DNA of 64,000 bases from an uncultured Alphaproteobacteria bacterium. Lineage in GTDB: Bacteria; Pseudomonadota; Alphaproteobacteria; MPNO01; DASWLB01. A model generated the notes under the pieces. The model ran no database searches and was not told the DNA's origin. It saw nothing but the letters and a program-made list of their open reading frames with translations. The translations under genes and the position numbers were made by a program. Location: positions 841,193 through 905,192 of the forward strand of contig CAVZIN010000007.1 in the NCBI GenBank assembly GCA_963775315.1, read 5' to 3'. Positions 7,638 through 43,421 of this stretch are shown in pieces (positions within the stretch are counted from its first letter, which is position 1; each line of letters starts with the position of its first letter).

Positions 7638-7859
7638 CTACGCCCGCGGGATCAGGTGGAGCATCATCAGCTCGTCGGGGGTGAGGGAACGGCGCGCGCC
7701 GTCCCCCGGATAGACCTCCCACGCGTCGCGCTCGACGGTCTGCCAATCGAACCCGACGATCAGGGCGAGAGCGATGCGCGCCAGCGTCCGCCTCAGCCCC
7801 GCCTCGCGCGCGGGCGCGACGTAGCCCGGCGGGTCGTAGCGCTTCAGCACCCCGCTCAT
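7638..7859 (-). CDS. Small hypothetical protein (73 aa) co-transcribed downstream of the Rieske oxygenase pair
   Basis: ATGA start/stop overlap with the upstream Rieske gene, strong GC3 codon bias, and it fills the convergent gap. No recognisable domain. Confidence 0.4.
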   Translation of the reverse strand: MSGVLKRYDPPGYVAPAREAGLRRTLARIALALIVGFDWQTVERDAWEVYPGDGARRSLTPDELMMLHLIPRA

Positions 7860-8881: not shown

Positions 8882-8897
8882 CACTCGGTCCTTTCGT

Positions 8898-9950: not shown

Positions 9951-9989
9951 GTGGCGATCCCTCCTGTGGCCGAGGCGTCGCCTCTTGCC

Positions 9990-10006
9990 TTGCAAGTTCC
10001 GTGCCA
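9990..10006 (-). promoter_or_regulatory. Sigma-54 (RpoN) promoter for the Rieske oxygenase operon
   Basis: Minus strand reads TGGCACGGAACTTGCAA, a GG-N10-GC match to TGGCACG-N4-TTGCW, about 40 nt upstream of the start at 9950. Confidence 0.7.
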
Positions 10007-10060
10007 CTCCGAAGCCGCCGTGTTTTCAGGCGTCCCGATCCACGGATCGGAGGCTGTTGC

Positions 10061-15823: not shown

Positions 15824-17203
15824 TTATGCGAGCGGGGCGAAGGTGCGCATCTTGCCGGGGTTGAGAAGCCCGTAGGGGTCTGCGGTCAGCTTGAACCCAT
15901 GCTGGTCGCCGGCGATCTGCTTGTGCCGCGTACCGTCCTCCAGCGTGTAGACGTGCGGGTTGGCGATCATCGCGCCATGGGATTCGTGGTAGGCGATGAT
16001 CTCGTTCAGCCGCTTCTCGGTGGTGAAGCGCACCAGGGGCAGACCGGAGCAGGTGAGCTCGCCGGCATACTTGATGATCTCGAGGTGCATCGGGAGTTCG
16101 TCGCCGAACTTGGCGCGCATGTGCTGCACGGTCTCGAGCGCCCGGCCGGCCGGGTAGAGGATCTGCAAATAGGTCACCGACTTGTCCACCTTGAGCGCGT
16201 GCAGGGTGGTGTGGTTCCAGGTGTATTCGTAGAGCGGCGGGTAGGCGGCGCGGTCCTCGGTCGCGATGGAATCCTCGTCGTAGGTGAGCGTTCCGCGGTG
16301 CTCCTCGATCAGGTCGGCAAGAGCGACCATCGATCCCTCGGCAATCATGCAGATCACAATGTGCTTGCCCTCGGGCAGGATCGTGTTGAGGCGCGGAAAG
16401 TATTTCGGGATCGGCCAGGCGACAGGAGTCACCAGCTTCTTCACGATGCCGTCGGCCGCGCCGAGCGCGAAGGCGAAGAGACCGGCGTCGAGGAAATCGT
16501 CGAACGCCACCACCACGTCTCGCCACGGCCAGAGCGGCGTCAGCGGCATCTCGATCTCGGTGATGATCCCGGTCGTCCCGTACGCGTGGTTGACTACGTT
16601 GGCGGCCTTGCCCTTGAGGTCGAGGACGCGTGGTTCCGCCTCCGCCGTCACGACGCGGGCCCCGATCACGTTGCCCGGCTCGCGCAGCCCGCCGAACGTG
16701 ACCGAGCCGATGCCGCCGGAGCCGCCGGCCACGAACCCGCCGATGGTCGCGGTTCTCTTGGTCGAGGGATACATGCGCTGCTCCCAGCCGAACCGGCGGG
16801 TCTGGTGGTCGAGCTCGAGCATGTACTTGCCCGGACCGACGCGGACGCGGCCCGGTGAAATCTCGCGCACCTCGTTCATCTCGATCATGTCGAGCAGCAC
16901 GCCGCCGGAGAGCGGCACGGCTTGGCCGTAATTCCCGGTGCCGCCACCGCGTGCGGTGACCGGCACGCGGTGGCGCACGGCGGCGCGCATCACCGTCACC
17001 ACGTCAGCTTCCGAGCGGGGCGTGACGACGATCTCCGCGAGGCGGGTTTCGAGCTGAGGCTTCAGGATCGGACTGTACCAGAAGAAGTCGTGCGACTTCT
17101 TGCGGATATGGCGGGCGTCGCGCGTGTGCGGCACCGACCCGAGATCATCGAGGAAGGCGTCGAGGGCCCGCGAGGGCGGCGCGGCGGCGGCGAGGCGGCT
17201 CAT
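15824..17203 (-). CDS. FAD-linked oxidase (PCMH-type FAD-binding oxidoreductase)
   Basis: 459 aa, FAD-binding_4 motifs (ARGGGTGNYG...), and last gene of the creatininase operon. Confidence 0.85.
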   Translation of the reverse strand: MSRLAAAAPPSRALDAFLDDLGSVPHTRDARHIRKKSHDFFWYSPILKPQLETRLAEIVVTPRSEADVVTVMRAAVRHRVPVTARGGGTGNYGQAVPLSGGVLLDMIEMNEVREISPGRVRVGPGKYMLELDHQTRRFGWEQRMYPSTKRTATIGGFVAGGSGGIGSVTFGGLREPGNVIGARVVTAEAEPRVLDLKGKAANVVNHAYGTTGIITEIEMPLTPLWPWRDVVVAFDDFLDAGLFAFALGAADGIVKKLVTPVAWPIPKYFPRLNTILPEGKHIVICMIAEGSMVALADLIEEHRGTLTYDEDSIATEDRAAYPPLYEYTWNHTTLHALKVDKSVTYLQILYPAGRALETVQHMRAKFGDELPMHLEIIKYAGELTCSGLPLVRFTTEKRLNEIIAYHESHGAMIANPHVYTLEDGTRHKQIAGDQHGFKLTADPYGLLNPGKMRTFAPLA

Positions 17204-18516
17204 ACGGCGGGCGCCCCCAGCACGGCGTCCAGCATTCGATAATCGGGAGGGGCGGTATCGATCGGCTTGCCCGACCGCAGCACGATGCGATCGTTCTGTG
17301 GGCGGCTCAGCATCTCGGAATAGCTGCGCCCGCGCAGGACCACCAGATCGGCCGTTGCGCCGCGCGCGATCTTGCCGGCATCGCTCGCCCCCATGACCGA
17401 GGCCGGAGTCGACGTGATCGCTGCCGGCCAGCCGTCATAGTCGGAGTCGAGGTGGGCGATGCGGGTCGCCTGGGTGAACACTTCCACCATGTCGAGGTCG
17501 CCGAACCCGCAGAACGGGTCGCGCGTGTTGTCGGACGAGATCGAAACCGGGATGTCGTGGCTCTTGAACTCCTGAAGCAGCGTGACGCCGCGATATCGCG
17601 GCGTGCGGCCGGGCGTGCGGTCCTGAAGGTACATGTTGCACATCGGGAGGCTGACGATGGAGAGCCCGCAGTCGGCCGCGAGCCCGAGCACCGTCTCGAC
17701 ATACTCGTCAGACTGAACCGAAAAGGCGCAGCAATGGCCGCAATTCACCTTGCCGCGGAAGTTGCGGCGCAGCGCGGCTTCGGCGACGGCCTTGAGCGAG
17801 CGGGCCTCGGGATCGAGCCCTTCGTCAATGTGGAAGTCGAGGTTGAGCCCGCGCTCGGCCGCGAGCAGGAACACGCGGTCGAGCAGCGCCGGCGCTTCCT
17901 TCTCGATATAGCTCACCGCGCCCAGAACGCCGCCGCTTTCGGCCACCAGGTCGGCCATCGCCTTGCCGGCGTCCCGATCGGCGAAGAACGAGATCGGCAC
18001 CAGGTTGACCGGTTGCAGCTCGATGCGCCCGGCCCAGCGCTCGCGCACCTCGCGCACCACCGGCCAGCTTCGCACGTTCTGGGGCGGTAGGCTGTCGACA
18101 TGGGTGCGGATCGCCTTGGTGCCGTGGGCGTAGGCGCAGGCTAGGCTGAATTCCATCCGCGCGCGCACGTCGTCCGGCGACCAGTTCGCCTCGCGGTCGG
18201 CCGCGACGTTGGTGTAGGCGCCCATGAACGTGCCGTCCGGGTTGCGCCGGCGCGGCCAGATATGGCCCTTGTCGAGGTGGGTGTGGAGCTCGACGAAGGA
18301 GGGCCAGACGAGCCCGTCGTCGGCGTCGTGGACCGGGCCATCCACCGGCGCCGAGCCGGGCTTCGCAATTGCCGCGATCTTGCCATCCGCGACGTGGATG
18401 TCGACGCGAACGAGACCGTCGGAAAGCGTGGGGGCGCCGGCCGGGATCAGGTCGAGGCAGATTGCCGGGACCGTGGCGTTCGTCAGCCAATGGTCCTTGA
18501 GTTCGAGCGCGCTCAT
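17200..18516 (-). CDS. Cytosine/creatinine deaminase-like amidohydrolase (CodA/AtzC family)
   Basis: MSALELKDHWL... start with ATGA overlap to the ATPase stop, and the HTHLDKG metal motif; 439 aa. Confidence 0.8.
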   Translation of the reverse strand: MSALELKDHWLTNATVPAICLDLIPAGAPTLSDGLVRVDIHVADGKIAAIAKPGSAPVDGPVHDADDGLVWPSFVELHTHLDKGHIWPRRRNPDGTFMGAYTNVAADREANWSPDDVRARMEFSLACAYAHGTKAIRTHVDSLPPQNVRSWPVVREVRERWAGRIELQPVNLVPISFFADRDAGKAMADLVAESGGVLGAVSYIEKEAPALLDRVFLLAAERGLNLDFHIDEGLDPEARSLKAVAEAALRRNFRGKVNCGHCCAFSVQSDEYVETVLGLAADCGLSIVSLPMCNMYLQDRTPGRTPRYRGVTLLQEFKSHDIPVSISSDNTRDPFCGFGDLDMVEVFTQATRIAHLDSDYDGWPAAITSTPASVMGASDAGKIARGATADLVVLRGRSYSEMLSRPQNDRIVLRSGKPIDTAPPDYRMLDAVLGAPAV

Positions 18517-19304
18517 GATTGGCGCCCCATCGCATCGGTCAGCATCGCGGATACCTCGCGGCAGTAGTCGGCGTAGACGTTCGAGGTGCGGAATGCCTCG
18601 GTCCGGGGGTAGGGGGCGTCGATCTCGATCTCGCCCACGACGCGGCCCGGCCGCGCGGCCATCACGATGATGCGGCGCGAGAGGTAGACCGACTCGAAAA
18701 CGCTGTGGGTAACGAAGATCACCGTCCAGTCGTTGTCGCCCCAAAGCTCCAGCAGGTCGTTGTTGAGCTTGAAACGCGTGATTTCGTCGAGGGCGGCGAA
18801 GGGCTCGTCCATCAACAGGAGGCGCGGCTTCACGATCATGCCGCGCGCGATGGAGACGCGCATCTTCATGCCGCCCGAAAGCTCGCGCGGGTAGGAATTC
18901 TCGAAGGCGGAGAGCCCGACGCGCGCGATGGCCGCCTTCACATCCGGCGCGGCCTTCGTCCGCGAGACGCCCTCGAGGCGGAGGGGGAGGTAGACGTTCT
19001 CGAACACCGTGGCCCAGGGCATCAGGGTCGGCTCCTGGAACACGAAGCCCACTTCGCGCTCCGGGTTGCCGCCTGCGTCGTAGGACGAGGTGGGCCAGTC
19101 GACCGTGCCGGCGCTCACCCCGGACAGGCCCGAGATGAGCTTGAGTGCCGTCGACTTGCCGCAGCCAGACGGGCCCAGCAGGCTGACGAAATCGTGCTCG
19201 TGGATGTCGATGTCGAGCCCGCGCAGCGCAATCGTTCCATTTTCGAACGTCTTGGAGACGCCCTTGATGCTGACCAGCGGGCGATCGGCCGTGATTACCG
19301 CCAT
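18513..19304 (-). CDS. ABC transporter ATP-binding protein (NitT/TauT family)
   Basis: Walker A GPSGCGKST, signature LSGGMKMR, Walker B LLLMDEP, GGAGAAGG RBS. Confidence 0.9.
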   Translation of the reverse strand: MAVITADRPLVSIKGVSKTFENGTIALRGLDIDIHEHDFVSLLGPSGCGKSTALKLISGLSGVSAGTVDWPTSSYDAGGNPEREVGFVFQEPTLMPWATVFENVYLPLRLEGVSRTKAAPDVKAAIARVGLSAFENSYPRELSGGMKMRVSIARGMIVKPRLLLMDEPFAALDEITRFKLNNDLLELWGDNDWTVIFVTHSVFESVYLSRRIIVMAARPGRVVGEIEIDAPYPRTEAFRTSNVYADYCREVSAMLTDAMGRQS

Positions 19305-20128
19305 GACGACGCCTTCTCCATGCTGTGGCGCGAGATGATGCGGTCGAGCGGGTAGCGCGCGACCTCGTCCAGAAGCGCGACCAGTGCATTGGCCGCGTGG
19401 TCGATCAGCAGCTTTCCGCGCTCCGGATCGGCGTCGAGCGCATTGCCGCAGGCGCCATCGGGGTGCAGGTCCTGGGTTTGCCAGCCGAACCCGATCTTCC
19501 CTTCGGCGCGGAGGTAGGTGTAGCTCCGCGCCACGTCCTCGGCGGCGGATTGGAAGTTCGCGAGGCGCGCGTGGTTCACGAGCTCGGGTCGCGCCGCCAT
19601 CATGATCGAGGTCTCGACCGCGCCGCCGTGGATGCCGAACTCGAGCTCGTCGTCGCTGAACAGGCCCTTCGGCCGCCCGAGTCCGCCCGGTCCCACCGTG
19701 ACGACGAACATGCCGAGCCGGACGCGCAGATCGCGGGCGACGATGTCGGCGATCTGCGGCTGTCCGCCATGGGTGTTGAGGATCAGCATGCGGCGCACGC
19801 CGGTCCGATGGACCAACTCGCCGATCTCGGTCCAGAGGCGCGTCAAAGTCTCGGCCGACAGGGTAAGCGTTCCGGGAAATTCCTGGTGCTCGTTCGATTT
19901 GCCGACGTTCATCGCCGGTAGGACGAGGACGGGCAGTGCCTCGGGCGCGCGCGCCACGGCCTCGCCGACGATCGCCCGGTTGATCGCGGCGTCGACGCAA
20001 ACCGGGAGATGCGGCCCGTGCTGTTCAATGGCGGCGACCGGCAGCAGGGCGACGATGCGCGCGGCATCCAGTGCCGCGAACTCCGTGGTCGTCAGCTCTT
20101 CCCAATAGCGGCTCGGCAATCGGCTCAT
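19295..20128 (-). CDS. Creatininase-family amidohydrolase (creatinine amidohydrolase-like)
   Basis: 277 aa with creatininase-fold motifs (HGPHLP, NTHGG), GGGAAGGG RBS, and a sigma-54 promoter about 30 bp upstream. Confidence 0.85.
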   Translation of the reverse strand: MSRLPSRYWEELTTTEFAALDAARIVALLPVAAIEQHGPHLPVCVDAAINRAIVGEAVARAPEALPVLVLPAMNVGKSNEHQEFPGTLTLSAETLTRLWTEIGELVHRTGVRRMLILNTHGGQPQIADIVARDLRVRLGMFVVTVGPGGLGRPKGLFSDDELEFGIHGGAVETSIMMAARPELVNHARLANFQSAAEDVARSYTYLRAEGKIGFGWQTQDLHPDGACGNALDADPERGKLLIDHAANALVALLDEVARYPLDRIISRHSMEKASSWR

Positions 20129-20157: not shown

Positions 20158-20177
20158 TCGCAAGAATCGTGCCAACC
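20158..20177 (-). promoter_or_regulatory. Sigma-54 promoter for the creatininase-ABC ATPase-deaminase-FAD oxidase operon
   Basis: Minus strand reads GGTTGGCACGATTCTTGCGA, about 30 nt upstream of the start at 20128. Confidence 0.75.
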
Positions 20178-20314
20178 GGCGGCGCTGCGGATTTGACGCG
20201 ATTTGCGCCGCAAGGCGCCGCGCGGCTGCACAGCGAATGCGCAGGCTGGTCACGCGATGGGCAACGCGGCCCCGTGAAACGTGCGAAGGGGCCCGCACGC
20301 GGCCGTTTTCGTCG

Positions 20315-20331
20315 TGGCACGGTTCTTGCGA
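20315..20331 (+). promoter_or_regulatory. Sigma-54 promoter for the Rieske-less oxygenase paralog
   Basis: TGGCACGGTTCTTGCGA, 30 nt upstream of the ATG at 20361. Confidence 0.7.
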
Positions 20332-20360
20332 CGCAAAGGCGGTCTACCAAGGGAGGAGCC

Positions 20361-21239
20361 ATGCTTGCGACCCGACAGAACTTGCTGCGCCACTTCTGGT
20401 ACCCGCTGATGCCCGTCGACGGCATCGGGCTGCTGCCGCGCCCGTTCACGCTGCTGGGCCGCGAACTTCTCTTGTGGCGCGATGCGGGAGGAGCGGTCCG
20501 GGCCTCTCCGGAGCCGGCCGGCATCGACGAGCGCTACGGCTATGTCTGGCTCGTCCTCGCCGAGCCGCTGTTCCCGATCCCACCGCTGCCGCCGGCATCG
20601 GACCCGGCGTTTCGCATGATCTCCGAATTTTACGAGGTGTGGCGCTGCGCCGGGCTCCGGCTTATGGAGAACGAGTTCGACAATGCCCACGTTGCCTTCG
20701 TCCACCGCGCGACGTTCGGGGTGATCGCGGAGCCCGAGCCGCCGCGCTCGACCATCTCGCCGACCGCGGATGGGTTCGAGATGCGGACCGTGTTCAACGT
20801 CCGCAACAACGATTTGCAACTGCGCAACCTGCGGACCGCCGAGGACCGCATCGACCGCAATATCGTGATGACCTGGTTCATGCCGTTCTCGCGGACGCTC
20901 GACATCCGCTATCCGAGCGGGCTGCGCCACGTGATCTTCACCGCCGCTACCCCGATCGACGACGCCCATTCGCAGTTCGTGCAGTTCGCCATGCGGAACG
21001 ACAGCGAGGCCGAGGCGTCGGCCGCGGGAGTCGTCGCGTTCGACCGGCAGGTGACCTCGGAGGACCGCGCTGTCCTGGAGACGACCGACCCCGACGTGCC
21101 GCTCGACCTCCGTGCCCGGAACGAGGTGCACATGGCATCGGACCGACCGGGGCTGGTGATGCGCCGCATGCTGGGGGCGGTTCTCGCCCGGCGCGGAGAG
21201 GCGGAGGCGACGGGTGCGCGCGCGCCTGCCTGTTCCTGA
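20361..21239 (+). CDS. Rieske-less paralog of the Rieske oxygenase catalytic subunit (NdmC-like; retains the mononuclear Fe site)
   Basis: 292 aa that align with the paralogs at 7856 and 8898, but the roughly 55 aa carrying CxH...CxxH are absent. Keeps ENEFDNAHVAFVH. GGGAGGAG RBS and a sigma-54 promoter. Confidence 0.75.
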   Translation: MLATRQNLLRHFWYPLMPVDGIGLLPRPFTLLGRELLLWRDAGGAVRASPEPAGIDERYGYVWLVLAEPLFPIPPLPPASDPAFRMISEFYEVWRCAGLRLMENEFDNAHVAFVHRATFGVIAEPEPPRSTISPTADGFEMRTVFNVRNNDLQLRNLRTAEDRIDRNIVMTWFMPFSRTLDIRYPSGLRHVIFTAATPIDDAHSQFVQFAMRNDSEAEASAAGVVAFDRQVTSEDRAVLETTDPDVPLDLRARNEVHMASDRPGLVMRRMLGAVLARRGEAEATGARAPACS

Positions 21240-23389: not shown

Positions 23390-24313
23390 ATGCGTGACGG
23401 AGACGCCACCGGCTATCCGCGCGACATGCGCGGCTACGGGGCGACGCCGCCGGACCCTTACTGGCCCGGTGGCGCCCGTCTCGCCCTCCAGTTCGTGATC
23501 AATTACGAGGAGGGGGCGGAGAATTGCGTGCTGCACGGCGACGCGGCGTCGGAGGCGTTCCTGTCCGAGATCGTCGGGGCCGTGCCGATCCAAGGCGCGC
23601 GCCACATGAACATGGAGAGCCTCTACGAATACGGCAGCCGGGCTGGGTTCTGGCGGCTGCACCGGCTGTTCGCCTCGCGCGACCTGCCGGTCACCGTGTT
23701 CGGTGTCGCCATGGCGCTGGCGCGCAATCCGGAGGCGGTCGCCGCGATGATCGAGGCCGGATGGGAGATCGCAACCCATGGCTGGCGCTGGATCGACTAT
23801 CAGCATGTGTCCGAGGCGGAGGAGCGCGCCGACCTGCTCCGTGCCATCGAAGTTCACACAGGCGCGACCGGGCAGCGCCCGCTCGGCTGGTATCTCGGCC
23901 GGTGTAGCCCGAACACGCGCCGGCTGGTGGCGGAGGAGGGCGGGTTCCTCTACGACGCCGACAGCTATGCCGACGACCTGCCCTATTGGGACACGAGCCA
24001 CGGCCGAGCGCAGCTCATCGTCCCCTATACGCTCGACGCCAACGACATGCGGTTCGCGACGGCGCAAGGCTTCAACGCCGGCGACCAGTTCTTCGCCTAT
24101 CTGAAGGACAGCTTCGATGTGCTGTACGCCGAGGGCGGCGAACAGCCGAAGATGATGTCCGTCGGGCTGCATTGCCGCCTGATCGGTCGGCCCGGCCGCA
24201 TCGCGGCGCTCGCGCGCTTTCTCGACTATATCGCGAGCCATGACCAGGTGTGGGTGTGCCGGCGCATCGACATCGCACGCCACTGGCACGCCCGCCACCC
24301 GCCGCCGTCGTGA
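23390..24313 (+). CDS. puuE: Allantoinase PuuE (polysaccharide deacetylase type)
   Basis: YPRDMRGYG...NYEEGAENCVLHGD...ESLYEYGSRAGFWRL is nearly collinear with characterised PuuE. Confidence 0.9.
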   Translation: MRDGDATGYPRDMRGYGATPPDPYWPGGARLALQFVINYEEGAENCVLHGDAASEAFLSEIVGAVPIQGARHMNMESLYEYGSRAGFWRLHRLFASRDLPVTVFGVAMALARNPEAVAAMIEAGWEIATHGWRWIDYQHVSEAEERADLLRAIEVHTGATGQRPLGWYLGRCSPNTRRLVAEEGGFLYDADSYADDLPYWDTSHGRAQLIVPYTLDANDMRFATAQGFNAGDQFFAYLKDSFDVLYAEGGEQPKMMSVGLHCRLIGRPGRIAALARFLDYIASHDQVWVCRRIDIARHWHARHPPPS

Positions 24314-25599
24314 CGGCTCGGGCCAAGCTTGCGCCCGCCGCCGGCTATCGTCGCGACGCCGAAACGGTGATGGCGCGGCTTGATGCGCTGGCCGCGTGTT
24401 CGGAGACCGAGACCGGTCTCACCCGCCGTTTCCTCACCCCCGCGCACCGCGCCGCCATCGATCTGGTCGCGGGCTGGATGGGCGCGGCCGGGATGACGAC
24501 GCGGCTCGATCCGATGGGGACGCTCATTGGGCGTCGCGAAGGGAAGCGGCCAAGCGCGCCCTGCCTGATGCTCGGCTCGCACATCGACACGGTCGTGGAC
24601 GCCGGGAAATACGACGGCGCGCTGGGGGTGATCGCCGCCATCGCTTGTGTCGCACGCTTCGCCGAAACCGGGTTCGCCCCCGACTTTGCGATCGAGGTGG
24701 TCGCGTTCGGCGACGAAGAGGGCTCGCGCTTCCCGATCACGCTGACATCGAGCCGCGCGCTCGCCGGCACGCTCGACCCCGGGGTCTTCGCCATCCGCGA
24801 TGCCGCCGGGACGAGCCTCGGCGAAGCCATGCGGTCCTTCCGGCTCGATCCGGAAGCGCACCGGGCGGCGGCGCGGCGGCGCGAGGACGTGCTGGCATAT
24901 ATCGAGCTGCATATCGAGCAGGGGCCTGTGCTGGAGGCGGAAAGCCTCCCGGTCGGGGTGGTGACTGCCATCGCGGGCCAATCGCGCTTCGAGGTCGCGA
25001 TCGAAGGTGTGGCCGGCCACGCCGGGACCGTGCCGATGGCACTCCGCCGGGACGCGCTGGCTGCGGCGGCCGAGTGCATCCTGGCGGCCGAGGATGAATG
25101 CCGCGCCCGCGCCGGGTCGGGCGCGGTCGGGACGGTCGGGCGCATCGCGGCGGCGCCCGGGGCCGTCAATGTGATTCCGGGCCGCGCGCAATTTGTCCTG
25201 GATGTGCGAGCGCCCGCCGATGCCGACCGGTCCGCGGCGGTCGACGCGCTGCGCGCCCGGTTCGAGGCGGTCGCCAAGCGCCGCGGCGTATGGCTGGAGA
25301 TGCGTGAGACTCATTCGGCGGCGTCGGTTGCCTGTGCGTCCGATTTGGCGGATTGCCTCGCCCAGGCCGTCGCGGCGGAGGGCGTGAAGGTGCGCCGCCT
25401 GCCCAGCGGGGCAGGGCACGACGCCATGGCCGTCGCGGCGCTTTGCGACGTGGCGATGCTGTTCGTCCGATGCCGCGGCGGGGTGAGTCATCATCCGGAC
25501 GAGCATGTCGAGATTACCGACGTCGCCGTCGCCCTCGCCGTGCTCGATCGCTTCGTGCGCGCCTTCGGAGCGGCAACCTGCCCAAGGTTCGGGCAGTGA
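24310..25599 (+). CDS. allC: Allantoate amidohydrolase-like M20/carbamoylase-family hydrolase
   Basis: Zn-binding blocks GSHIDTV, DEEGSRF and HAGTVPM. A GTG at 24310 is coupled to the puuE stop; an alternative ATG lies at 24370. Confidence 0.8.
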   Translation: MTARAKLAPAAGYRRDAETVMARLDALAACSETETGLTRRFLTPAHRAAIDLVAGWMGAAGMTTRLDPMGTLIGRREGKRPSAPCLMLGSHIDTVVDAGKYDGALGVIAAIACVARFAETGFAPDFAIEVVAFGDEEGSRFPITLTSSRALAGTLDPGVFAIRDAAGTSLGEAMRSFRLDPEAHRAAARRREDVLAYIELHIEQGPVLEAESLPVGVVTAIAGQSRFEVAIEGVAGHAGTVPMALRRDALAAAAECILAAEDECRARAGSGAVGTVGRIAAAPGAVNVIPGRAQFVLDVRAPADADRSAAVDALRARFEAVAKRRGVWLEMRETHSAASVACASDLADCLAQAVAAEGVKVRRLPSGAGHDAMAVAALCDVAMLFVRCRGGVSHHPDEHVEITDVAVALAVLDRFVRAFGAATCPRFGQ

Positions 25600-25701
25600 G
25601 GCCGGTTCTCCGCGCGCCAGGGCAGCGATTTCCACGCATTTCCGGTCGCCCATGCTTGGCACGCCGCTTGCAAGGCGAGGGACGGGACAAGGCGTGAGGC
25701 G

Positions 25702-26244
25702 ATGACGGTCCAGTTCCTGCTCGCTGAGCTCAACGCGATGCCGCGCGGCGATTTCGTTGCCGCGCTGGGCGAGGTGTTCGAGCATTCGCCCTGGGTCGCC
25801 GGCTGCGCCTGGGATGCGCGCCCATTTGAGAGTCGGACGGCACTGCACCGGGCGATGGTGGGCGCGGTGCGCGCGGCGGGACGCGAGCTGCAGGTCACGC
25901 TGGTCTGCGCCCATCCCGATCTTGCCGGGCGGCTCGCCCGCAAGCGCAAGCTGGGCGCGCATTCGGCGCAAGAGCAGGCCGCGGCAGGACTCGACAGCCT
26001 GACGGACGACGAGTTCGCGCGGTTCGAGAGGTTGAACGCGCTCTATCGCCGCTGCTTCGATTTCCCTTTCGTCATCTGCGTTCGCGATCACCACAAGTCC
26101 GCCATCCTCGAAGCGTTCGAGCGCCGCCTGTTCCACACGCCGGAGCACGAACTGGACGAGGCGCTGACCAACATCGCCCGCATTGCCGAGCTCCGCCTCG
26201 TCGGGCTGGTCGCTGATCCCCAACCCGAGAGAGCCGAGCCGTGA
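25702..26244 (+). CDS. uraD: OHCU decarboxylase (2-oxo-4-hydroxy-4-carboxy-5-ureidoimidazoline decarboxylase)
   Basis: 180 aa, AHPDLAG motif, in an operon between allC and puuD. Confidence 0.85.
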   Translation: MTVQFLLAELNAMPRGDFVAALGEVFEHSPWVAGCAWDARPFESRTALHRAMVGAVRAAGRELQVTLVCAHPDLAGRLARKRKLGAHSAQEQAAAGLDSLTDDEFARFERLNALYRRCFDFPFVICVRDHHKSAILEAFERRLFHTPEHELDEALTNIARIAELRLVGLVADPQPERAEP

Positions 26245-27449
26245 TGAATCCCGAAATCCACGAATGGCTGAGCCTCGCGCTGCGCTGGGCGCATATCGTG
26301 ACCGCGATGGCGTGGATCGGCGCGTCGTTCTATTTCATGTGGCTCGATTCCCACCTCGAGCCGCCGCGCCATCCGAAACCCGGCGTCGAGGGTGACCTGT
26401 GGATGGTTCACTCCGGCGGGTTCTACGAGGTGAACAAGATCCTGGTCGCGCCGCGGGATCTGCCGCCCCACCTGCACTGGTTCAAGTGGGAGGCCGCGTT
26501 CACCTGGATTAGCGGCATCTGCCTTTTGGCGGTGGTCTATTACCTAGGCTCGTCGGCCTTCCTGATCGACCCCGCCGTCGCCAATATCGAGCGGCACGAT
26601 GCGCTCGGAATCGCGTTGATCCTCTTCATCGTCGGCTGGTTCGTCTATGACGGGCTCTACATCTCGCCGTTGGCGAAGATGGGCCATCTCGCCGCCGCGA
26701 TCGGGTTCCTCCTGCTTTGCGGCGTCGCATACGGGTTGTTCCATATTTTCGCCGCGCGCGCGGCCTACATCCACGTCGGCGCGCTGATGGGCACCATCAT
26801 GGTGGCGAACGTGTGGGTGCGCATCATACCGGCCCAGCGCGCCCTGGTCGCCGCGACCAAGGCGGGCACGCGGCCCGACCCGACGCTCGGGCTCCGGGCC
26901 AAGCAGCGGTCGGTGCACAACAACTACATGACGCTGCCCGTCATCTTCGTGATGATGAGCTCCCACTACCCCGAGACGTACGGCAACAAGTACGGCTGGG
27001 CGATCCTGATCGGAATGTTCGTTGTGGGCGCGGTGGTCCGCCACTGGTTCAACCTGCGGAACGCGGGCCGCACCCATTGGTGGCCGGTACCGGTCTCGGT
27101 GGCCGGGGTGCTGCTGATCATGTACCTGACCATGCCGGCGCGCCCGACGATGGAAGCGATGGCGGCGACCGCGGGTCCGGCGGGGCACGTGCCGTTCGGC
27201 GAGGTGCGCGCAGTGTTCGAGCGGCGCTGCGTCGCCTGCCATTCGCGCCACCCGACCGACAGCGACTTCGTCGTGCCGCCCAAGAACATTGTCTTCGATT
27301 CCGCTGCGCATATCCGTGGCCACGCCGAGGACATCATGCGGACGGTCGTCGTCGCGAAGATCATGCCGCTCGGCAACGTCACCGGCATGACGCCGGCGGA
27401 GCGCGCGCTGCTCGGCCGATGGCTGGCCCAGGGCGCGCCGGTCAACTGA
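26241..27449 (+). CDS. puuD: Urate hydroxylase PuuD (membrane protein with a C-terminal cytochrome c)
   Basis: Multi-TM N-terminal region, C-terminal CVACHS heme-binding motif, and a start that overlaps the uraD stop. Confidence 0.85.
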   Translation: MMNPEIHEWLSLALRWAHIVTAMAWIGASFYFMWLDSHLEPPRHPKPGVEGDLWMVHSGGFYEVNKILVAPRDLPPHLHWFKWEAAFTWISGICLLAVVYYLGSSAFLIDPAVANIERHDALGIALILFIVGWFVYDGLYISPLAKMGHLAAAIGFLLLCGVAYGLFHIFAARAAYIHVGALMGTIMVANVWVRIIPAQRALVAATKAGTRPDPTLGLRAKQRSVHNNYMTLPVIFVMMSSHYPETYGNKYGWAILIGMFVVGAVVRHWFNLRNAGRTHWWPVPVSVAGVLLIMYLTMPARPTMEAMAATAGPAGHVPFGEVRAVFERRCVACHSRHPTDSDFVVPPKNIVFDSAAHIRGHAEDIMRTVVVAKIMPLGNVTGMTPAERALLGRWLAQGAPVN

Positions 27450-27456
27450 GATGCGG

Positions 27457-28701
27457 TCAGGAGCCCCCGAGCAGGTCGACGAGGGCGCGGGCCACGATCT
27501 CGGTCGCGGCCGCGAGGTCGGCGAGGCGCAAATTCTCGTCGGCGTTGTGTCCGTTGGCCTCGGCCAGGGTGCGGGGTCCGGCGCCATACAAAACCACGGG
27601 GATGCCGGCGGCGGCATAGTGGCGCGCGTCAGTGTAGAGCGGCGAGCCGACGACCGGAACCGGATGGCCCAGGAGCGGTGCGGCGTGGCGGGCGAGCGCC
27701 TCGGCCAGCCGCTCCCACCCCGGTCCCGGGGCGAGCGGCGCGGCGGCGAGTACGATTGCCGTCTCGACGGTGATGTCGGGATATTCGCTCGCAGCCTCGG
27801 CAACCAGCGCGCGCAGCTCGGCCTCGGCGTCGGATGGCGTCTCCTCGGGCACGATGCGCCGGTCGAGCCGGAAGCGCACCCGGTCGGGCACGACGTTGGC
27901 GGCGATGCCGCCGGAGATCGTCCCCACGTTCAATGTCGGCGCGGCGATCCCTGGGATGGCGGAGCATCGCTCCGCCAGCTTTGCGCGATGGGCGTAGAGG
28001 GCGGCGAGTACGCCGGTCGTGGCCTCCAGCGCATCGCGCCCGGCGGCGGGTTCCGCCGCGTGGGCCTGGCAGCCGGTGACCGTGACCTCGAGATGCAGGC
28101 AGCCATTGTGGGCGTTGACGATGGCGTGGCTGAACCCGGCGCAGATCGCGTAGTCGGGCCGTGCGAGTCCCTCGTCGAGCAGGAATTTCGGGCCGATCTG
28201 GCCCCCCGTCTCCTCGTCCCAGGTGAAGTGCAGCTCCACCGTGCCGCCGAGACGCGCGCCCCCTGCCGCGGCCTCGCGAAGCGCGAGCAGGGCGAAGGCG
28301 TAGGTCGCGAAGTCGGACTTGGAAACCGCGACGCCGCGCCCGTACATGCGCGCATCGCCGCCCACGCCGGCGATCTCCGCGCCGTAGGGGTCGTGGGTCC
28401 AGCCGAGCCCGGGCGGCACCACGTCGCCATGTGCGTTGAGGGCGAGGGTCGAGCCGTCGCCGAACCGGTGGCGAACGATCAGGTTGGTCGCGCTGATCAT
28501 GCCGGCCCGGCGCGCGCGCGCCTCCGGCACGGGGTACGCCGCGACCGGGAGGCCCAGCCCTTCCAGAAGGGTGCGCGCGACGTGGGCATGCGGTGCGCAG
28601 TCGCCCGGTGGGTTGTCGGAAGGCGCCCTGACCAGCGCCGCCAGAAAGGCGAGCTGCCGGTCGCGCTGACGTTCGAGGTAACGGGAAATCGCGTCGGTCA
28701 T
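27457..28701 (-). CDS. M20-family metallohydrolase (ArgE/DapE/carboxypeptidase G2-like)
   Basis: 414 aa with M20 metal-binding motifs (HGDVV, DEE), on the opposite strand. Confidence 0.85.
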   Translation of the reverse strand: MTDAISRYLERQRDRQLAFLAALVRAPSDNPPGDCAPHAHVARTLLEGLGLPVAAYPVPEARARRAGMISATNLIVRHRFGDGSTLALNAHGDVVPPGLGWTHDPYGAEIAGVGGDARMYGRGVAVSKSDFATYAFALLALREAAAGGARLGGTVELHFTWDEETGGQIGPKFLLDEGLARPDYAICAGFSHAIVNAHNGCLHLEVTVTGCQAHAAEPAAGRDALEATTGVLAALYAHRAKLAERCSAIPGIAAPTLNVGTISGGIAANVVPDRVRFRLDRRIVPEETPSDAEAELRALVAEAASEYPDITVETAIVLAAAPLAPGPGWERLAEALARHAAPLLGHPVPVVGSPLYTDARHYAAAGIPVVLYGAGPRTLAEANGHNADENLRLADLAAATEIVARALVDLLGGS

Positions 28702-28742
28702 CGGCGCGGCAGTCTATCCGAAGGAACGAGGTGAAACGAGCC

Positions 28743-29729
28743 ATGGCCACGCAAATCCGAACCACACAGACCGCGCACTTGCCGCTGATCGACATCGAGG
28801 GCCTCGTAAGCCCCGATCCCGCCCGCCGCCAGGCGGTCGGTGCCGCCATGCGCGCCGCCTGCATCGACAAGGGTTTCATGTACGTCACCGGCCATGGGGT
28901 GCCGGAGCGTCTGATGGACGAAACGTTCGCCCTGTCGCGGGACTTTTTCGCTCTGCCGCTTGGGACGAAGCAATCCTACGATGTGCGGAACGCCATCGCG
29001 CGCCGCGGCTATGCCGGCATCCGCACCCAGGCGTTCCAGCTGGGCCCCGCCGACCTCAAGGAAAGCTTCTTCTTCGGCGAGGAGCTGCCGCTCGACGAGC
29101 CGCGCGTGGTGCGCGGACTCTACGACCACGGCCCGAACCAGTGGCCGGCGGAGCTGCCGGCGTTCCAGCCGGTCATGTACGAATACTGGCGCCAGATGAT
29201 GGCGCTGAGCGAGCGGCTGCTGGTCAGGCTTGCGCTGTCGCTCGGCCTCCCTGAGCCGTTCTTCGACGGATTCAAGCGCGCCGCGATGTGCCCGGTGCGC
29301 CTGCTGCACTATCCGCCGCCTCAGGACGACAGCCCGCTTGGCGAGGTGAGCTTCGGTGCCCACACCGATTTCGGCGGCATGACCGTGCTTGCCCAGGACG
29401 CGGCCGGCGGGCTCCAGATCCAGGGCGAGGAGGGGGATTGGATCGACGCGACACCGGTGCCCGGCGCGTTCATCGTCAATCTCGGCGATTTCGTACAGCG
29501 TTGGACCAATGACCTCTATCGCTCAACTCTGCACCGAGTGGTGTCGAACGGCGGCGCACGCTACTCCATCGCGGCGTTCTACGACGGCAATCCGGAATAT
29601 CGCGTGGAGACGTTGCCGGGCTGCATCTCGCCGGGCGAGGCGGCGAAGTACCCGCCGACCACGATGATCGAGTATCTCGAGATGCGCGCAAGGAGGTCCC
29701 AGGTCGATTACGGCGAGCAGGCGTTTTGA
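28743..29729 (+). CDS. 2-oxoglutarate/Fe(II)-dependent dioxygenase (IPNS/ACC-oxidase-like family)
   Basis: 328 aa, HxD...H facial triad (HTDFG...H) and the RxS 2OG-binding motif. Confidence 0.8.
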   Translation: MATQIRTTQTAHLPLIDIEGLVSPDPARRQAVGAAMRAACIDKGFMYVTGHGVPERLMDETFALSRDFFALPLGTKQSYDVRNAIARRGYAGIRTQAFQLGPADLKESFFFGEELPLDEPRVVRGLYDHGPNQWPAELPAFQPVMYEYWRQMMALSERLLVRLALSLGLPEPFFDGFKRAAMCPVRLLHYPPPQDDSPLGEVSFGAHTDFGGMTVLAQDAAGGLQIQGEEGDWIDATPVPGAFIVNLGDFVQRWTNDLYRSTLHRVVSNGGARYSIAAFYDGNPEYRVETLPGCISPGEAAKYPPTTMIEYLEMRARRSQVDYGEQAF

Positions 29730-30244
29730 GCGCAGCACCGCCGGACATCAATGCGGAACTGCACGCCCAGCTGCATGCCTGCGGAGTGACGGTCGCCGCG
29801 TCGCTGCCGGACGACTGGATCGCGCCGCTGATCGGGCGGATCGCCTCTGATCCCGGGATGCGGCACGTTCCGGTGGCGCGCGAGGCCGAGGCGGTGGCGA
29901 TCTGCAGCGGCGCGTTCTTCGGCGGTGTGCGTTCCGCCGCGCTGATGGGCGCGACCGGCCTGCTCACCTGCACGGGCGAACTCGCGACGCTCAACCTGCG
30001 GCACGCGATTCCGGTGTTTCTGATCGTGAGCGCACGCGGTTCGATCGACGACCACCGGATCTACCAGGAGGTGCAGGGTCGCCGTACGCGGCCGCTGCTC
30101 GACATGTACGACTTCCCCTATCACGTGATCGAAAGTGCGGACCGGATCGGCGACATACCCGACTGCTACGAGACCTGCCGCCTCCAGAAGCGGCCCTTCG
30201 TGCTGTTCCTCGCGCGCCACCTGATGAAGGGGGACGTACGATGA
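29726..30244 (+). CDS. TPP-dependent decarboxylase alpha subunit (sulfopyruvate/phosphonopyruvate decarboxylase ComD-like)
   Basis: About 172 aa TPP-enzyme N-terminal (PYR) domain. The putative TTG start overlaps the dioxygenase stop; the exact start is uncertain. Confidence 0.7.
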   Translation: MSAAPPDINAELHAQLHACGVTVAASLPDDWIAPLIGRIASDPGMRHVPVAREAEAVAICSGAFFGGVRSAALMGATGLLTCTGELATLNLRHAIPVFLIVSARGSIDDHRIYQEVQGRRTRPLLDMYDFPYHVIESADRIGDIPDCYETCRLQKRPFVLFLARHLMKGDVR

Positions 30245-30843
30245 ATGCGCGCGAGGCTATCGAGGTTCTGGCGGCCCACCGCGGCGACGCCGTTGCCGTC
30301 TGCGCGCTCGGCATGGCGGCGAACGAATGGTGGGCGGTGACCGAGGGCGAGGATTCGTTCTACATGCATGGCGCCATGGGCTTCGCGGCGAGCTTCGCGC
30401 TCGGCCTCGCCCTTTCCCTGCCGCAGGCGACCGTCTGGCTGTTGAACGCGGACGGGTCTCTCTGCATGAATCTCGGCTGCCTTCTCACCGAAGCAGGACA
30501 GGCCGCGCCCAACCTCAAGCATTTCGTCATCGACAACGGCGTCTACCAGACGGTCGGCGCCGTTCCGATGGTCAATCGAGGTCGCACGGACTATGCCGCC
30601 ATCGCCCGCGGCGCCGGCTTTCCGCGCGCCCGCACCATCGAGGATATCGACACGCTTACTCGCGCGATGCCGGAGATCGCAACCGAGCGAGGCCCGACCT
30701 TCACCGCCGTCCGAGTCCCGCCCGAGACCGGCTTCCTGCGCACGCCGCCGATGACCTACGAAGGTCCGGAGATGAAGTACCGCTTCGGCCGTGCTCTTGA
30801 ACGCAAATTCGGCATCGACGTATTCGGGCCGCAGGGCTACTGA
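30241..30843 (+). CDS. TPP-dependent decarboxylase beta subunit (ComE-like, TPP-binding PP domain)
   Basis: 200 aa, GDG-x25-N TPP/Mg motif (NADGSLCMNLGCLLT...DNGVY), ATGA coupling. Confidence 0.75.
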   Translation: MNAREAIEVLAAHRGDAVAVCALGMAANEWWAVTEGEDSFYMHGAMGFAASFALGLALSLPQATVWLLNADGSLCMNLGCLLTEAGQAAPNLKHFVIDNGVYQTVGAVPMVNRGRTDYAAIARGAGFPRARTIEDIDTLTRAMPEIATERGPTFTAVRVPPETGFLRTPPMTYEGPEMKYRFGRALERKFGIDVFGPQGY

Positions 30844-30936: not shown

Positions 30937-30953
30937 TGGCATGAATCTTGCAT
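30937..30953 (+). promoter_or_regulatory. Sigma-54 promoter for SBP paralog 2
   Basis: TGGCATGAATCTTGCAT, about 45 nt upstream of the ATG at 30996. Confidence 0.65.
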
Positions 30954-30995
30954 TGCAAGCTGCAAGACCCAACGGGTGGGAATTGGAGACAGACC

Positions 30996-32027
30996 ATGCT
31001 CGAGATGCTCAGGATCGGACGCCGCAGGTCGGCGCTCATGGCAGCGGCCGCCTTTGCCGCCGGAGTCCTCGTCGCGCACGAGGCGTCCGCCGACACGAAG
31101 GTGAGCTTCCTTACCTCGTGGAAGGCGCAGGCCGAGCATGGCGGCTACTATCAGGCGCTGGCGCTCGGATATTTCAAAAAGCATGGGCTCGACGTCAAGA
31201 TCCGCGAAGGCGGGCCGCAGCTCAACGGCACCCAGATGCTGGCCGGCGGCGCGGTCGATTTCGCCATGCTGTCGAACAACGATGACATCCTCCAGGCGGT
31301 CATCCATGGCGCGCATATGAAGGCGGTCATGGCCGGGTTCCAGAAGTCGCCGCAGATCCTGATGACCCACGAGGGCAACGGCATCGAAAAGCTGGAGGAC
31401 ATGAAGGGCAAGCCGATCCTTCTGGCGGCCGGCTCGGTCAACACCATGTTCGCCTGGCTCAAGGCCAAGTACGGCTTCATGGATTCGCAGATCCGCAAGT
31501 ACACCTTCAACATGGCGCCGTTCCTCGCCGACAAGAATTCGATCCAGCAAGGGTACCTGTCGAGCGAGCCGTTTATCGTGAAGAAGGAGGGCGGAATTAC
31601 TCCCAAGGTCTTCCTGCTCGCCGACCATGGCTACAACACCTACGCCTCGATCACCGCGACCTCTGACAAGATGATCGAGGAGCATCCCGAGGTGGTGCAG
31701 GCCTTCGTCGACGCCTCGATCGAGGGGCTCTACAGCTATCTCTATGGCGATCCGTCTCCGGCGAACGCGCTGATCAAGAAGGACAACCCGGAGATGACCG
31801 ACGATACGATCGCGTTCGGCATGGCAAAGCTCAAGGAGGCCGGTATCATCGACTCGGGCGACGCGCTGACGATGGGCATCGGCGCGATGACCGACGCGCG
31901 CTGGAAGAGCCAGTTCGCGTCTGCCGCTTCGGTCGGCGTCTATCCGAAGGATTTCGACTACAAGAAAGCCTACACGCTGCAGTTCGTCGACAAGGGCCAC
32001 GGTCTCGCGATGAAGCCGAAGATGTAG
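30996..32027 (+). CDS. ABC transporter substrate-binding protein (NMT1/TauA family), paralog 2
   Basis: Close paralog of the 21388 gene (shared blocks KVSFLTSWKAQAEHGGYYQA, NTMFAWLKAKYGF), with its own sigma-54 promoter. Confidence 0.9.
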   Translation: MLEMLRIGRRRSALMAAAAFAAGVLVAHEASADTKVSFLTSWKAQAEHGGYYQALALGYFKKHGLDVKIREGGPQLNGTQMLAGGAVDFAMLSNNDDILQAVIHGAHMKAVMAGFQKSPQILMTHEGNGIEKLEDMKGKPILLAAGSVNTMFAWLKAKYGFMDSQIRKYTFNMAPFLADKNSIQQGYLSSEPFIVKKEGGITPKVFLLADHGYNTYASITATSDKMIEEHPEVVQAFVDASIEGLYSYLYGDPSPANALIKKDNPEMTDDTIAFGMAKLKEAGIIDSGDALTMGIGAMTDARWKSQFASAASVGVYPKDFDYKKAYTLQFVDKGHGLAMKPKM

Positions 32028-34969: not shown

Positions 34970-35473
34970 ATGGAGGGAGCGCCTCTTCCGCTGGATGCGG
35001 AGACCAAGGCCGCCGAGCGGCCGGGCGACCACAAGGACGAGCTGCGGCTTTGGCTGCGGCTGTTTTCCTGCACAACAATGGTCGAGCGCGAAATCCGGCG
35101 CCGCCTGCGCGAGCGCTTCCGTACGACCCTGCCGCGCTTTGACCTGATGGCGCAGCTCGACAAGGTTCCCGACGGGATGAAGCTCGGCGAGCTGTCGCAA
35201 CGGCTGATGGTGTCGAACGGCAACATCACTGGGCTTGTCGACCGGCTGGTGGCGCAGGGGCTGCTCGACTGCCGCCCGGCGCCGAACGACCGACGCACCC
35301 AGATCGTCCGGCTGACCGCCGACGGGCGCCGCCGCTTCCGCGCCATGGCGGACGCGCACGAGGGATGGATCGCGGAGATCTTCGCGGGGCTTGCGCCCTC
35401 CGACATCGAGGGTCTGATGCACCTCACTGCGCGGGTGAAGCAGTCGGCCTACCTGGCGGTCCAGCCGCGATGA
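34970..35473 (+). CDS. MarR-family transcriptional regulator
   Basis: 167 aa with a winged-HTH region (LSQRLMVSNGNITGLVDRLV). Confidence 0.85.
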   Translation: MEGAPLPLDAETKAAERPGDHKDELRLWLRLFSCTTMVEREIRRRLRERFRTTLPRFDLMAQLDKVPDGMKLGELSQRLMVSNGNITGLVDRLVAQGLLDCRPAPNDRRTQIVRLTADGRRRFRAMADAHEGWIAEIFAGLAPSDIEGLMHLTARVKQSAYLAVQPR

Positions 35474-43210: not shown

Positions 43211-43286
43211 TGGCTCCGCGGGAGGGACTCGAACCCCCGACCCGGCGGTTAACAGCCGCCTGCTCTACCAGCTGAGCTACCGCGGA
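43211..43286 (-). tRNA. tRNA-Asn (anticodon GTT)
   Basis: The reverse complement folds as a 76-nt cloverleaf with a 7-bp acceptor stem, anticodon loop CTGTTAA and 3' CCA. Confidence 0.85.
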
Positions 43287-43347
43287 ATGGGCCGCTTATA
43301 CCAGCCCGGAATTCCGGTCGCCACCGCTTCGGCGTGATTGGCGGGGC

Positions 43348-43421
43348 TGGAGGCACGGGCCGGAATCGAACCGGCGTACGCGGCTTTGCAGGCCGCTGCA
43401 TAGCCACTCTGCCACCGCGCC
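43348..43421 (-). tRNA. tRNA-Cys (anticodon GCA)
   Basis: The reverse complement GGCGCGGTGGCAGAGTGG...CTGCAAA...TTCGATTCC...CCTCCA is 74 nt. Confidence 0.8.

Follow-up and report, generated by a model that had tools for sequence, protein, structure and literature searches.

The locus described here is a small gene cassette in a 64,000-nt stretch of DNA (the window) from an uncultured Alphaproteobacteria bacterium (contig CAVZIN010000007.1, positions 841,193 to 905,192 of the forward strand), in which a 2-oxoglutarate (2OG)/Fe(II) oxygenase precedes the two subunits of a thiamine diphosphate (TPP)-dependent decarboxylase and a periplasmic substrate-binding protein. The genes of the cassette, and the gene that diverges from it, are the following, in window coordinates:

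28743..29729, plus strand: 2OG/Fe(II) oxygenase of the bacterial 'IPNS-family' (PaIPNS-like), 328 aa, DIOX_N and 2OG-FeII_Oxy domains; alternative GTG start at 28731
29726..30244, plus strand: alpha subunit (PYR domain) of a TPP-dependent decarboxylase, 172 aa, TPP_enzyme_N; TTG start
30241..30843, plus strand: beta subunit (PP domain) of the same enzyme, 200 aa, TPP_enzyme_C
30948..32027, plus strand: NMT1/THI5-type periplasmic substrate-binding protein, probable fourth gene of the unit, Pfam NMT1; likely start ATG 30996
27457..28701, minus strand: M20 (ArgE/DapE-type) metallohydrolase, Peptidase_M20 and M20_dimer; membership of the unit uncertain

The oxygenase, alpha and beta genes lie head to tail on one strand, and each junction is a 4-nt overlap, TTGA at 29726-29729 between oxygenase and alpha and ATGA at 30241-30244 between alpha and beta; the open reading frames, domains and overlaps are thus as proposed in a first-pass annotation, which had described an oxygenase coupled to a split TPP enzyme. 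Third-position GC (GC3) of the three genes is 0.82-0.86, as expected for real genes in a window of 68% GC. The TTG start of alpha, flagged earlier as uncertain, is supported by sequence comparison: it is the sole canonical start close to the conserved N-terminus, and it matches, codon for codon, an ATG in an 80%-identical relative (locus L089). For the oxygenase, ATG 28743 is a more likely start than GTG 28731, because GAGG occurs 11 nt upstream and the predicted product (P0121, 328 aa) begins there. The binding-protein gene starts about 100-150 nt 3' of beta (30948 or 30996), and from ATG 30996 its product would carry an RRR-containing signal peptide. A scan of the cassette found no terminator-like site between its genes. 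We infer a four-gene transcription unit of oxygenase, alpha, beta and NMT1-type binding protein. The M20 gene is divergent to the oxygenase, with 41 nt (28702-28742) between its start codon and the oxygenase ATG; this gap is too short for two ordinary promoters, so that either the promoters are within coding sequence or one of the two starts is misannotated. The M20 protein scores 187.7 bits against TIGR01910 (cut-off 217.6), and no homologue of it was found beside alpha/beta in the other loci compared.

Alpha matches TPP_enzyme_N at 27.7 bits (gathering score 26.8) and beta matches TPP_enzyme_C with E 6e-16, in adjacent overlapping genes and without a middle domain, which is the architecture of simple non-oxidative decarboxylases; together with lengths of 172 and 200 aa, this bears out the split, ComDE-like organization recognized at the outset. 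The cofactor-activating Glu53 of alpha aligns with the 'RE' of RhiE, and beta carries the Mg-TPP motif A70-D71-G72...D98-N99-G100, in which the first Gly of the general motif GDG-X(24-27)-N(N) is Ala, and of which D71 and N99 are kept in at least 90% of 97 relatives. Alpha and beta together make up a heteromeric TPP enzyme whose cofactor motifs are intact. Among named families the pair scores best against ComDE, at about half of the curated sulfopyruvate decarboxylase cut-offs (alpha against TIGR03845, ComD, 82.9 bits, E 2.3e-23, cut-off 147.95; beta against TIGR03846, ComE, 109.8 bits, cut-off 221.5), and then against phosphonopyruvate decarboxylase (Ppd, TIGR03297), whose cut-off of 312.5 is also missed (alpha 55.9 bits, beta 107.3 bits). 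Among solved structures, RhiEF (9iz3) is matched at E 3e-13 by alpha (RhiE, 9iz3_A) and 1.4e-14 by beta, and AzcB/AzcC more weakly, at E 5.6e-9 by alpha (9u8r_A) and 2.6e-8 by beta, with about 24% identity in either case. The AlphaFold2 (AF2) model of beta (pLDDT 95.7) gives RhiF and the AzcB/AzcC chain 9u8q_G as about equally good top matches in Foldseek, with template-modelling (TM) scores of 0.75-0.87 for RhiF and 0.81/0.84 (root-mean-square deviation 2.5) for the beta-like chain of 9u8q.

At E<=1e-10, 1510 representatives (clustered at 50% identity) match beta, so that the split architecture is not rare, although a description of one such enzyme from the Begley group terms it so (PMC12746152). 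One 50%-identity cluster contains beta, the next full-length relatives being 49-51% identical, and among the 96 nearest full-length 50%-identity representatives ComE-like scores are reached by two and Ppd-level scores by none. These comparisons place the pair in an unassigned clade inside a large radiation of split TPP enzymes, most of which are likewise unassigned. Relatives labelled automatically as 'sulfopyruvate decarboxylase subunit beta' are probably misnamed, and coenzyme M or sulfonate metabolism can be wrongly inferred from this label for metagenome-assembled genomes (MAGs).

Orthologues of the pair are carried by 80 species-level loci (beta 62-84% and alpha 62-81% identical to the window pair) in Xanthobacteraceae, other Hyphomicrobiales, Burkholderiales and one Vulcanimicrobiota MAG, and alpha lies immediately upstream of beta in nearly all loci for which upstream sequence is available; among the carriers is a cultured strain, Rhodoplanes roseus DSM 5909 (locus L044). 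Their contexts were drawn from clustering of neighbour proteins and from Pfam-annotated contigs; neighbour genes were called by a GC3/GC1>GC2 rule, whose beta start coordinates are unreliable, and apparent alpha/beta overlaps of 70-73 nt in relatives are artefacts of it. The closest orthologues, including metagenomic ones at 85-87%, occupy a canonical (type-A) operon of creatininase-family hydrolase, vanillyl-alcohol-oxidase (VAO)-type FAD_binding_4 flavoprotein, RidA, alpha, beta, cytosine-deaminase-like amidohydrolase and NMT1-type ATP-binding cassette (ABC) transporter; its partner proteins are 66-87% identical among loci, and the operon is therefore truly conserved. A subgroup at 62-69% is accompanied by GntR, an enolase-superfamily enzyme with cis-3-hydroxyproline-dehydratase-like matches, an M24 creatinase/prolidase-like hydrolase, TctC, a glyoxalase and a DpaA-like dehydrogenase, or in a variant by an old-yellow-enzyme (OYE)-type flavoprotein and a short-chain dehydrogenase/reductase; ornithine cyclodeaminase/mu-crystallin-family genes are also among the neighbours. 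Sister clades (49-51%) adjoin genes for UbiD, molybdenum (Mo)-hydroxylase, Rieske oxygenase, isochorismatase, a cyclase-type hydrolase and NMT1 ABC components. The clade is strongly conserved, with a well-defined catabolic operon of six to nine genes in Alpha- and Betaproteobacteria of soil and freshwater, and these operons probably serve the catabolism of imported nitrogenous, probably cyclic, compounds.

Directly 5' of alpha, 13 loci have RidA, another 13 have TctC and five have GntR; a 2OG oxygenase stands there in the window only, in the place held by RidA in the canonical operon. Four of the families that flank canonical alpha/beta are encoded elsewhere in the window, in a tightly packed operon (15824-20122, minus strand) that is divergent from a urate-pathway operon:

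19295-20122, minus strand: creatininase-family hydrolase (Pfam)
18513-19292, minus strand: ABC ATPase (Pfam)
17200-18420, minus strand: cytosine-deaminase-like amidohydrolase (Pfam)
15824-17203, minus strand: VAO-type FAD_binding_4 flavoprotein (Pfam)

Searched with type-A representatives (tblastn), the creatininase-like, deaminase-like and flavoprotein genes of the window show 48%, 30% and 45% identity; since the corresponding values among type-A loci are 66-82%, these genes are paralogues rather than orthologues. The window's alpha and beta, at 76% and 81% identity, are by the same measure orthologues that have left the canonical operon, because their identity is high and that of the partners is not. 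In beta, 77 of the 200 positions are at least 98% conserved (63 sequences), and the window pair departs from the family-invariant residues at three sites only, I12L and A147C in alpha and L157V in beta; lineage-specific changes at such positions, a possible hint of new function, are essentially absent. Because the invariant residues are kept bar these three conservative changes, the chemistry of the decarboxylase probably stayed unaltered after the change of operon.

Several further observations concern the clade as a whole. Residues about 173-200 of beta, with the segment EGPEMKYRFGRAL...FGP.GY, are basic-rich and almost invariant in 63 orthologues, and the last ~15 residues reach past the end of the ComE model; this C-terminal segment may be a family signature that matters for contact between the subunits or for the substrate pocket. 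Loci L038 and L043 have three VanA-type Rieske genes directly upstream of alpha/beta. In L037 the opposite strand carries a second, divergent alpha/beta pair (35-36% identity), back to back with the main one, and in L069 a second beta, 32% identical, is found about 5 kb off; two paralogous split TPP decarboxylases therefore stand close together in some genomes. The VAO-type flavoprotein of type-A loci (e.g. L009, 7491-8867) has a close solved homologue, PDB 6v42/6v43, titled 'FAD/FMN-containing dehydrogenase' (E 1.3e-119), which could be a handle on the pathway substrate; a literature search on 6V42/6V43 found nothing relevant.

The oxygenase exceeds the gathering scores of both of its Pfam domains (DIOX_N, E 3.9e-29, 102.1 bits; 2OG-FeII_Oxy, E 7.7e-26, 90.8 bits), and its iron triad (H207-x-D209...H264) and 2OG-binding motif (R273-x-S275) are intact. 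Its best solved relatives are Anc357 (9ovh, E 1.3e-64) and PaIPNS (6jyv, E 4.9e-51). PaIPNS and the reconstructed Anc357 bind 2OG and have no function assigned beyond uncoupled 2OG turnover, with traces of ethylene and 3-hydroxypropionate (PMC12329707). Natural homologues are found at 82% identity (two short contigs) and at 69%, after which identity drops to about 50%. The 82% homologue lies in L089, which is colinear with the window over oxygenase, alpha, beta and binding protein (2652 nt, 80% nucleotide identity). The homologues at ~50% (L090-L093, from Bradyrhizobium sp. WD16 and a Pseudolabrys MAG) belong to a different unit, of LysR, oxygenase and alpha/beta-hydrolase, in which the oxygenase overlaps the hydrolase by 4 nt. 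In Bradyrhizobium sp. WD16 this unit has a CDA-fold deaminase and an NMT1 ABC transporter as neighbours, and in the Pseudolabrys MAG it adjoins hydantoinase A/B, a three-subunit Mo-hydroxylase and an AtzD/TrzD-family (barbiturase/cyanuric-acid-hydrolase) protein; it may represent a step, not yet characterised, in the oxidative catabolism of pyrimidines or triazine-like compounds. The two halves of the cassette thus stem from N-heterocycle catabolic settings with NMT1-type uptake, and their union is specific to this lineage. What is new here is an orphan alpha/beta clade with operon partners of its own, the oxygenase not among them; the split TPP architecture itself was known.

The reading that we favour, with a confidence a little on the positive side of even, is that alpha/beta decarboxylates a 2-oxo acid, or a 2-imino or cyclic-imine acid, in the catabolism of a nitrogen-rich, probably cyclic, compound, and that in this lineage the oxygenase supplies or modifies its substrate. 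The compound would be imported via the NMT1-type system and turned by hydrolases and an oxidase into the 2-oxo acid or its 2-imino/cyclic-imine form; in the canonical operon the oxidase would be the flavoprotein with RidA, and in the window it is possibly the 2OG oxygenase, which most likely acts on the decarboxylase substrate by hydroxylation. The TPP ylide would then attack C2 with departure of CO2, and protonation would free the product, either an aldehyde or the ring without its carboxylate. That oxygenase and decarboxylase are linked in function, which class of substrate they use and in what order the steps run are all deduced from gene content and context. The first-pass annotation had suggested a keto-acid, sulfonate or phosphonate step attached to the island, and of these the catabolic neighbourhoods favour the keto-acid step; the sulfonate and phosphonate alternatives fare poorly, with cut-offs missed and with neither an Xsc/Pta/TauE module nor a member of the phosphoenolpyruvate (PEP) mutase superfamily found nearby.

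A number of points weigh against this reading. Neither the alpha/beta clade nor the PaIPNS-like group of oxygenases includes a member of assigned function, and ComDE, followed by Ppd, is still nearest by sequence among named families. The canonical partners are present in the window as paralogues only. An oxygenase homologue is adjacent to alpha/beta in none of the 80 species-level loci and is missing from the neighbourhood altogether in 79 of them, the exception being 40% identical, 9.3 kb off and on the other strand; with the oxygenase near alpha/beta in one lineage only, the functional coupling therefore rests on that lineage, and within it the oxygenase/alpha junction of L089 is a 10-nt spacer without overlap. 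The promoter and terminator scan of the cassette gave no evidence for or against a shared transcript, and an Rfam scan of the window returned two tRNAs and no riboswitch that could name a ligand.

Of the other explanations, the one that survives best is that oxygenase and decarboxylase are functionally unrelated, a rearrangement having put alpha/beta, perhaps with the binding protein, behind the oxygenase of another pathway, so that the overlap is incidental. The lack of adjacency in the 80 loci, the spacer in L089 and the distinct conserved partners of the two halves (RidA or TctC for alpha, alpha/beta-hydrolase for the oxygenase) would all be expected in that case. L089, however, keeps the four-gene order at 80% nucleotide identity, the genes share one strand with a 4-nt overlap and no terminator-like site between them, and both families are typical of NMT1-transporter-linked N-heterocycle clusters. 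We judge mere neighbourhood unlikely, if by no means negligible.

A further possibility keeps the decarboxylase in N-heterocycle catabolism and changes its substrate: an enzyme of the LumK/LumL or AzcB/AzcC type would directly decarboxylate a ring-bound alpha-imino carboxylate and not an open-chain keto acid, the candidates being heteroaromatic acids that derive from purines, pyrimidines or pteridines, or else a cyclic ketimine, for instance pyrroline- or piperideine-2-carboxylate. LumK/LumL, a two-subunit TPP enzyme in which LumK needed LumL for solubility, decarboxylates a quinoxaline carboxylate in the lumichrome catabolism of an actinobacterium (PMC12746152), and provides the precedent of hydrolytic ring opening followed by TPP decarboxylation and then by Mo-hydroxylase and Rieske steps; the enzyme families of that pathway surround the sister clade of L099 and occur in the window. 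AzcB/AzcC enters through PDB 9u8q, titled a TPP-dependent alpha-imino acid decarboxylase (its function is taken from the PDB title), and through the structural match of the beta model; a literature search on AzcB/AzcC or 9U8Q found nothing relevant. Imine-handling neighbours of the clade (RidA, DpaA-like and ornithine cyclodeaminase/mu-crystallin-family proteins, and the cis-3-hydroxyproline-dehydratase-like enolase-superfamily enzyme) point the same way. On the other hand, the similarity to AzcB/AzcC (E 2.6e-8, 5.6e-9) is below that to RhiEF (1.4e-14, 3e-13), and RidA directly 5' of alpha in the canonical operon argues that imine hydrolysis to a free keto acid precedes decarboxylation. As a reading of its own this seems improbable to us, more so than chance neighbourhood. 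It is nonetheless tempting to speculate, at a similarly low level of expectation, that the clade is a fifth type of two-subunit TPP decarboxylase whose substrate, a ring-bound alpha-imino carboxylate, derives from purines, pyrimidines or pteridines, the oxygenase first oxidising the ring or a substituent. If true, this would be an undescribed oxidise-then-TPP-decarboxylate route for removing carbon from an N-heterocycle, perhaps widespread in soil Xanthobacteraceae and Burkholderiales, and analogous, with other enzymes, to thymine 7-hydroxylase plus iso-orotate decarboxylase.

It could also be supposed that the pair is a true sulfopyruvate decarboxylase, a bacterial ComDE, that degrades a sulfonate such as sulfolactate or cysteate imported via an NMT1/SsuA-like protein. 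ComD and ComE are the best named family matches, the JGI annotation gives many homologues this label, and NMT1 binding proteins are distantly related to SsuA/TauA. In bacterial sulfolactate degradation, moreover, ComDE is used alongside a transporter of the TctC type and a flavoprotein dehydrogenase. The scores nevertheless reach about half of the curated equivalog cut-offs, and the conserved partners (amidohydrolases, creatininase-family hydrolase, RidA) point to nitrogen and not to sulfur chemistry. Neither Pta nor a TauE-type sulfite exporter was found in the related loci with E. coli Pta and YfcA as probes, whose sensitivity is limited; Gcl/Xsc-like full-length TPP enzymes occur in five loci only; and no coenzyme M, phosphonate or sulfonate enzymes appear among the conserved neighbour clusters, comA/B/C not having been probed directly. 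The binding protein, too, is a clear NMT1 member (Pfam E 5.7e-35) that misses the SsuA_fam cut-off (TIGR01728, 46.4 bits against 163.5) and has no TauA model match in the profile search; in L058 the gene after beta encodes a binding protein of 45% identity. We consider this explanation very improbable. Still less credence can be given to a split Ppd of phosphonate biosynthesis: RhiEF is indeed the closest solved structure in sequence and fold, but TIGR03297 gives 55.9 and 107.3 bits against 312.5, the setting is catabolic with uptake transporters present, and no relative of the PEP mutase superfamily was found in the window or in 93 related loci (tblastn at E<=0.01 with E. coli PrpB, which belongs to the isocitrate lyase/PEP mutase superfamily), nor any PEP_mutase Pfam match in the annotated contigs. 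The initial impression that the cassette lacks a PEP mutase or coenzyme M context therefore holds in the window, by PrpB probe and neighbour clusters, and orthologues beside such genes, looked for as a sign that would have pointed to a canonical role, were found in neither the 80 species-level nor the other loci. Sulfonate or phosphonate chemistry has no support here.

The wider surroundings of the cassette agree with a catabolic setting, and include the following features:

23390..27449, plus strand: urate/allantoin catabolic genes PuuE, allantoate amidohydrolase, 2-oxo-4-hydroxy-4-carboxy-5-ureidoimidazoline (OHCU) decarboxylase and PuuD (TIGR03212 560 bits, NF006775 546, TIGR03164 196, Urate_ox_N 395)
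2397-4748: Mo-hydroxylase large subunit
4856-5830: Mo-hydroxylase FAD subunit
7856-8971, minus strand: VanA-type Rieske oxygenase
8898-10007, minus strand: VanA-type Rieske oxygenase
20169-21239, plus strand: VanA-type Rieske oxygenase
43211-43421, minus strand: tRNA-Asn(GTT) and tRNA-Cys(GCA) (Rfam scan)

From the window start to about 42.7 kb the DNA is a catabolic island, which also holds an Amidohydro_2 protein, ureidoglycolate lyase, RidA, AMP-ligase, OYE, carboxylesterase, a large amidohydrolase and three NMT1 binding proteins with permeases and ATPases; the tRNA pair divides it from housekeeping genes (PCMT, ValRS, an IlvD/Edd-family dehydratase, ArgRS). With its Mo-hydroxylase and three Rieske genes near the urate genes, it looks like an extended island for degradation of purines or substituted, possibly N-methylated, purines, and the window is in any case an N-heterocycle island. 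The cassette had been placed between purine genes and a taurine-type binding protein: the former are indeed PuuE, allantoate amidohydrolase, OHCU decarboxylase and PuuD, and the latter is better described as NMT1/THI5-type. We rejected a place for the cassette in the urate pathway itself, as orthologues of alpha/beta are unlinked to PuuE, AllC, OHCU decarboxylase and PuuD elsewhere, and as the oppositely oriented M20 gene stands between the two units. Within the island, longest-ORF (open reading frame) starts give implausible overlaps of AllC over PuuE by 64 nt (24250-24313) and of AMP-ligase over MarR by 109 nt (35365-35473), and the true starts of AllC and AMP-ligase probably lie further downstream.

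Two-subunit TPP decarboxylases with an assigned function number four only (ComDE, RhiEF, LumK/LumL and AzcB/AzcC), and the substrate of the present clade, once found, would probably bring to light a new way of degrading a nitrogen-rich compound. For the oxygenase the comparison is with PaIPNS and Anc357, with which it shares the same HxD...H and RxS motifs; its closest natural homologues outside its own lineage are about 50% identical to it and are paired with an alpha/beta-hydrolase, not with a TPP enzyme. ComDE resembles the decarboxylase pair in its two small PYR/PP subunits without a middle domain and in its adjacent overlapping genes, and differs in that the pair scores about half of the ComDE cut-offs and is partnered by nitrogen-compound hydrolases, with no coenzyme M or sulfonate genes found nearby. 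RhiEF/Ppd (9iz3) likewise shares the heteromeric architecture (E about 1e-14, TM 0.75-0.87), whereas identity is about 24%, the Ppd cut-off is missed and the setting of the pair is catabolic rather than biosynthetic. AzcB/AzcC (9u8q/9u8r/9u8s) is again a heteromeric split TPP enzyme, of weak sequence similarity (about 24% identity), that acts on C=N and not on C=O, fitting RidA and imine-reductase neighbours. LumK/LumL, although of actinobacterial source, is a two-subunit TPP enzyme encoded in an N-heterocycle cluster with amidohydrolases, Mo-hydroxylase and Rieske genes, and acts in the way that is proposed for the pair. The pair thus resembles LumK/LumL and AzcB/AzcC in heteromeric TPP architecture and in an N-heterocycle/imino-acid setting, a likeness of setting and not proof of substrate; they are the latest precedents for the split architecture, their C=N substrates fit the RidA, DpaA-like and mu-crystallin-family neighbours of the clade, and in our analysis these two systems suit its context better than ComDE or Ppd.

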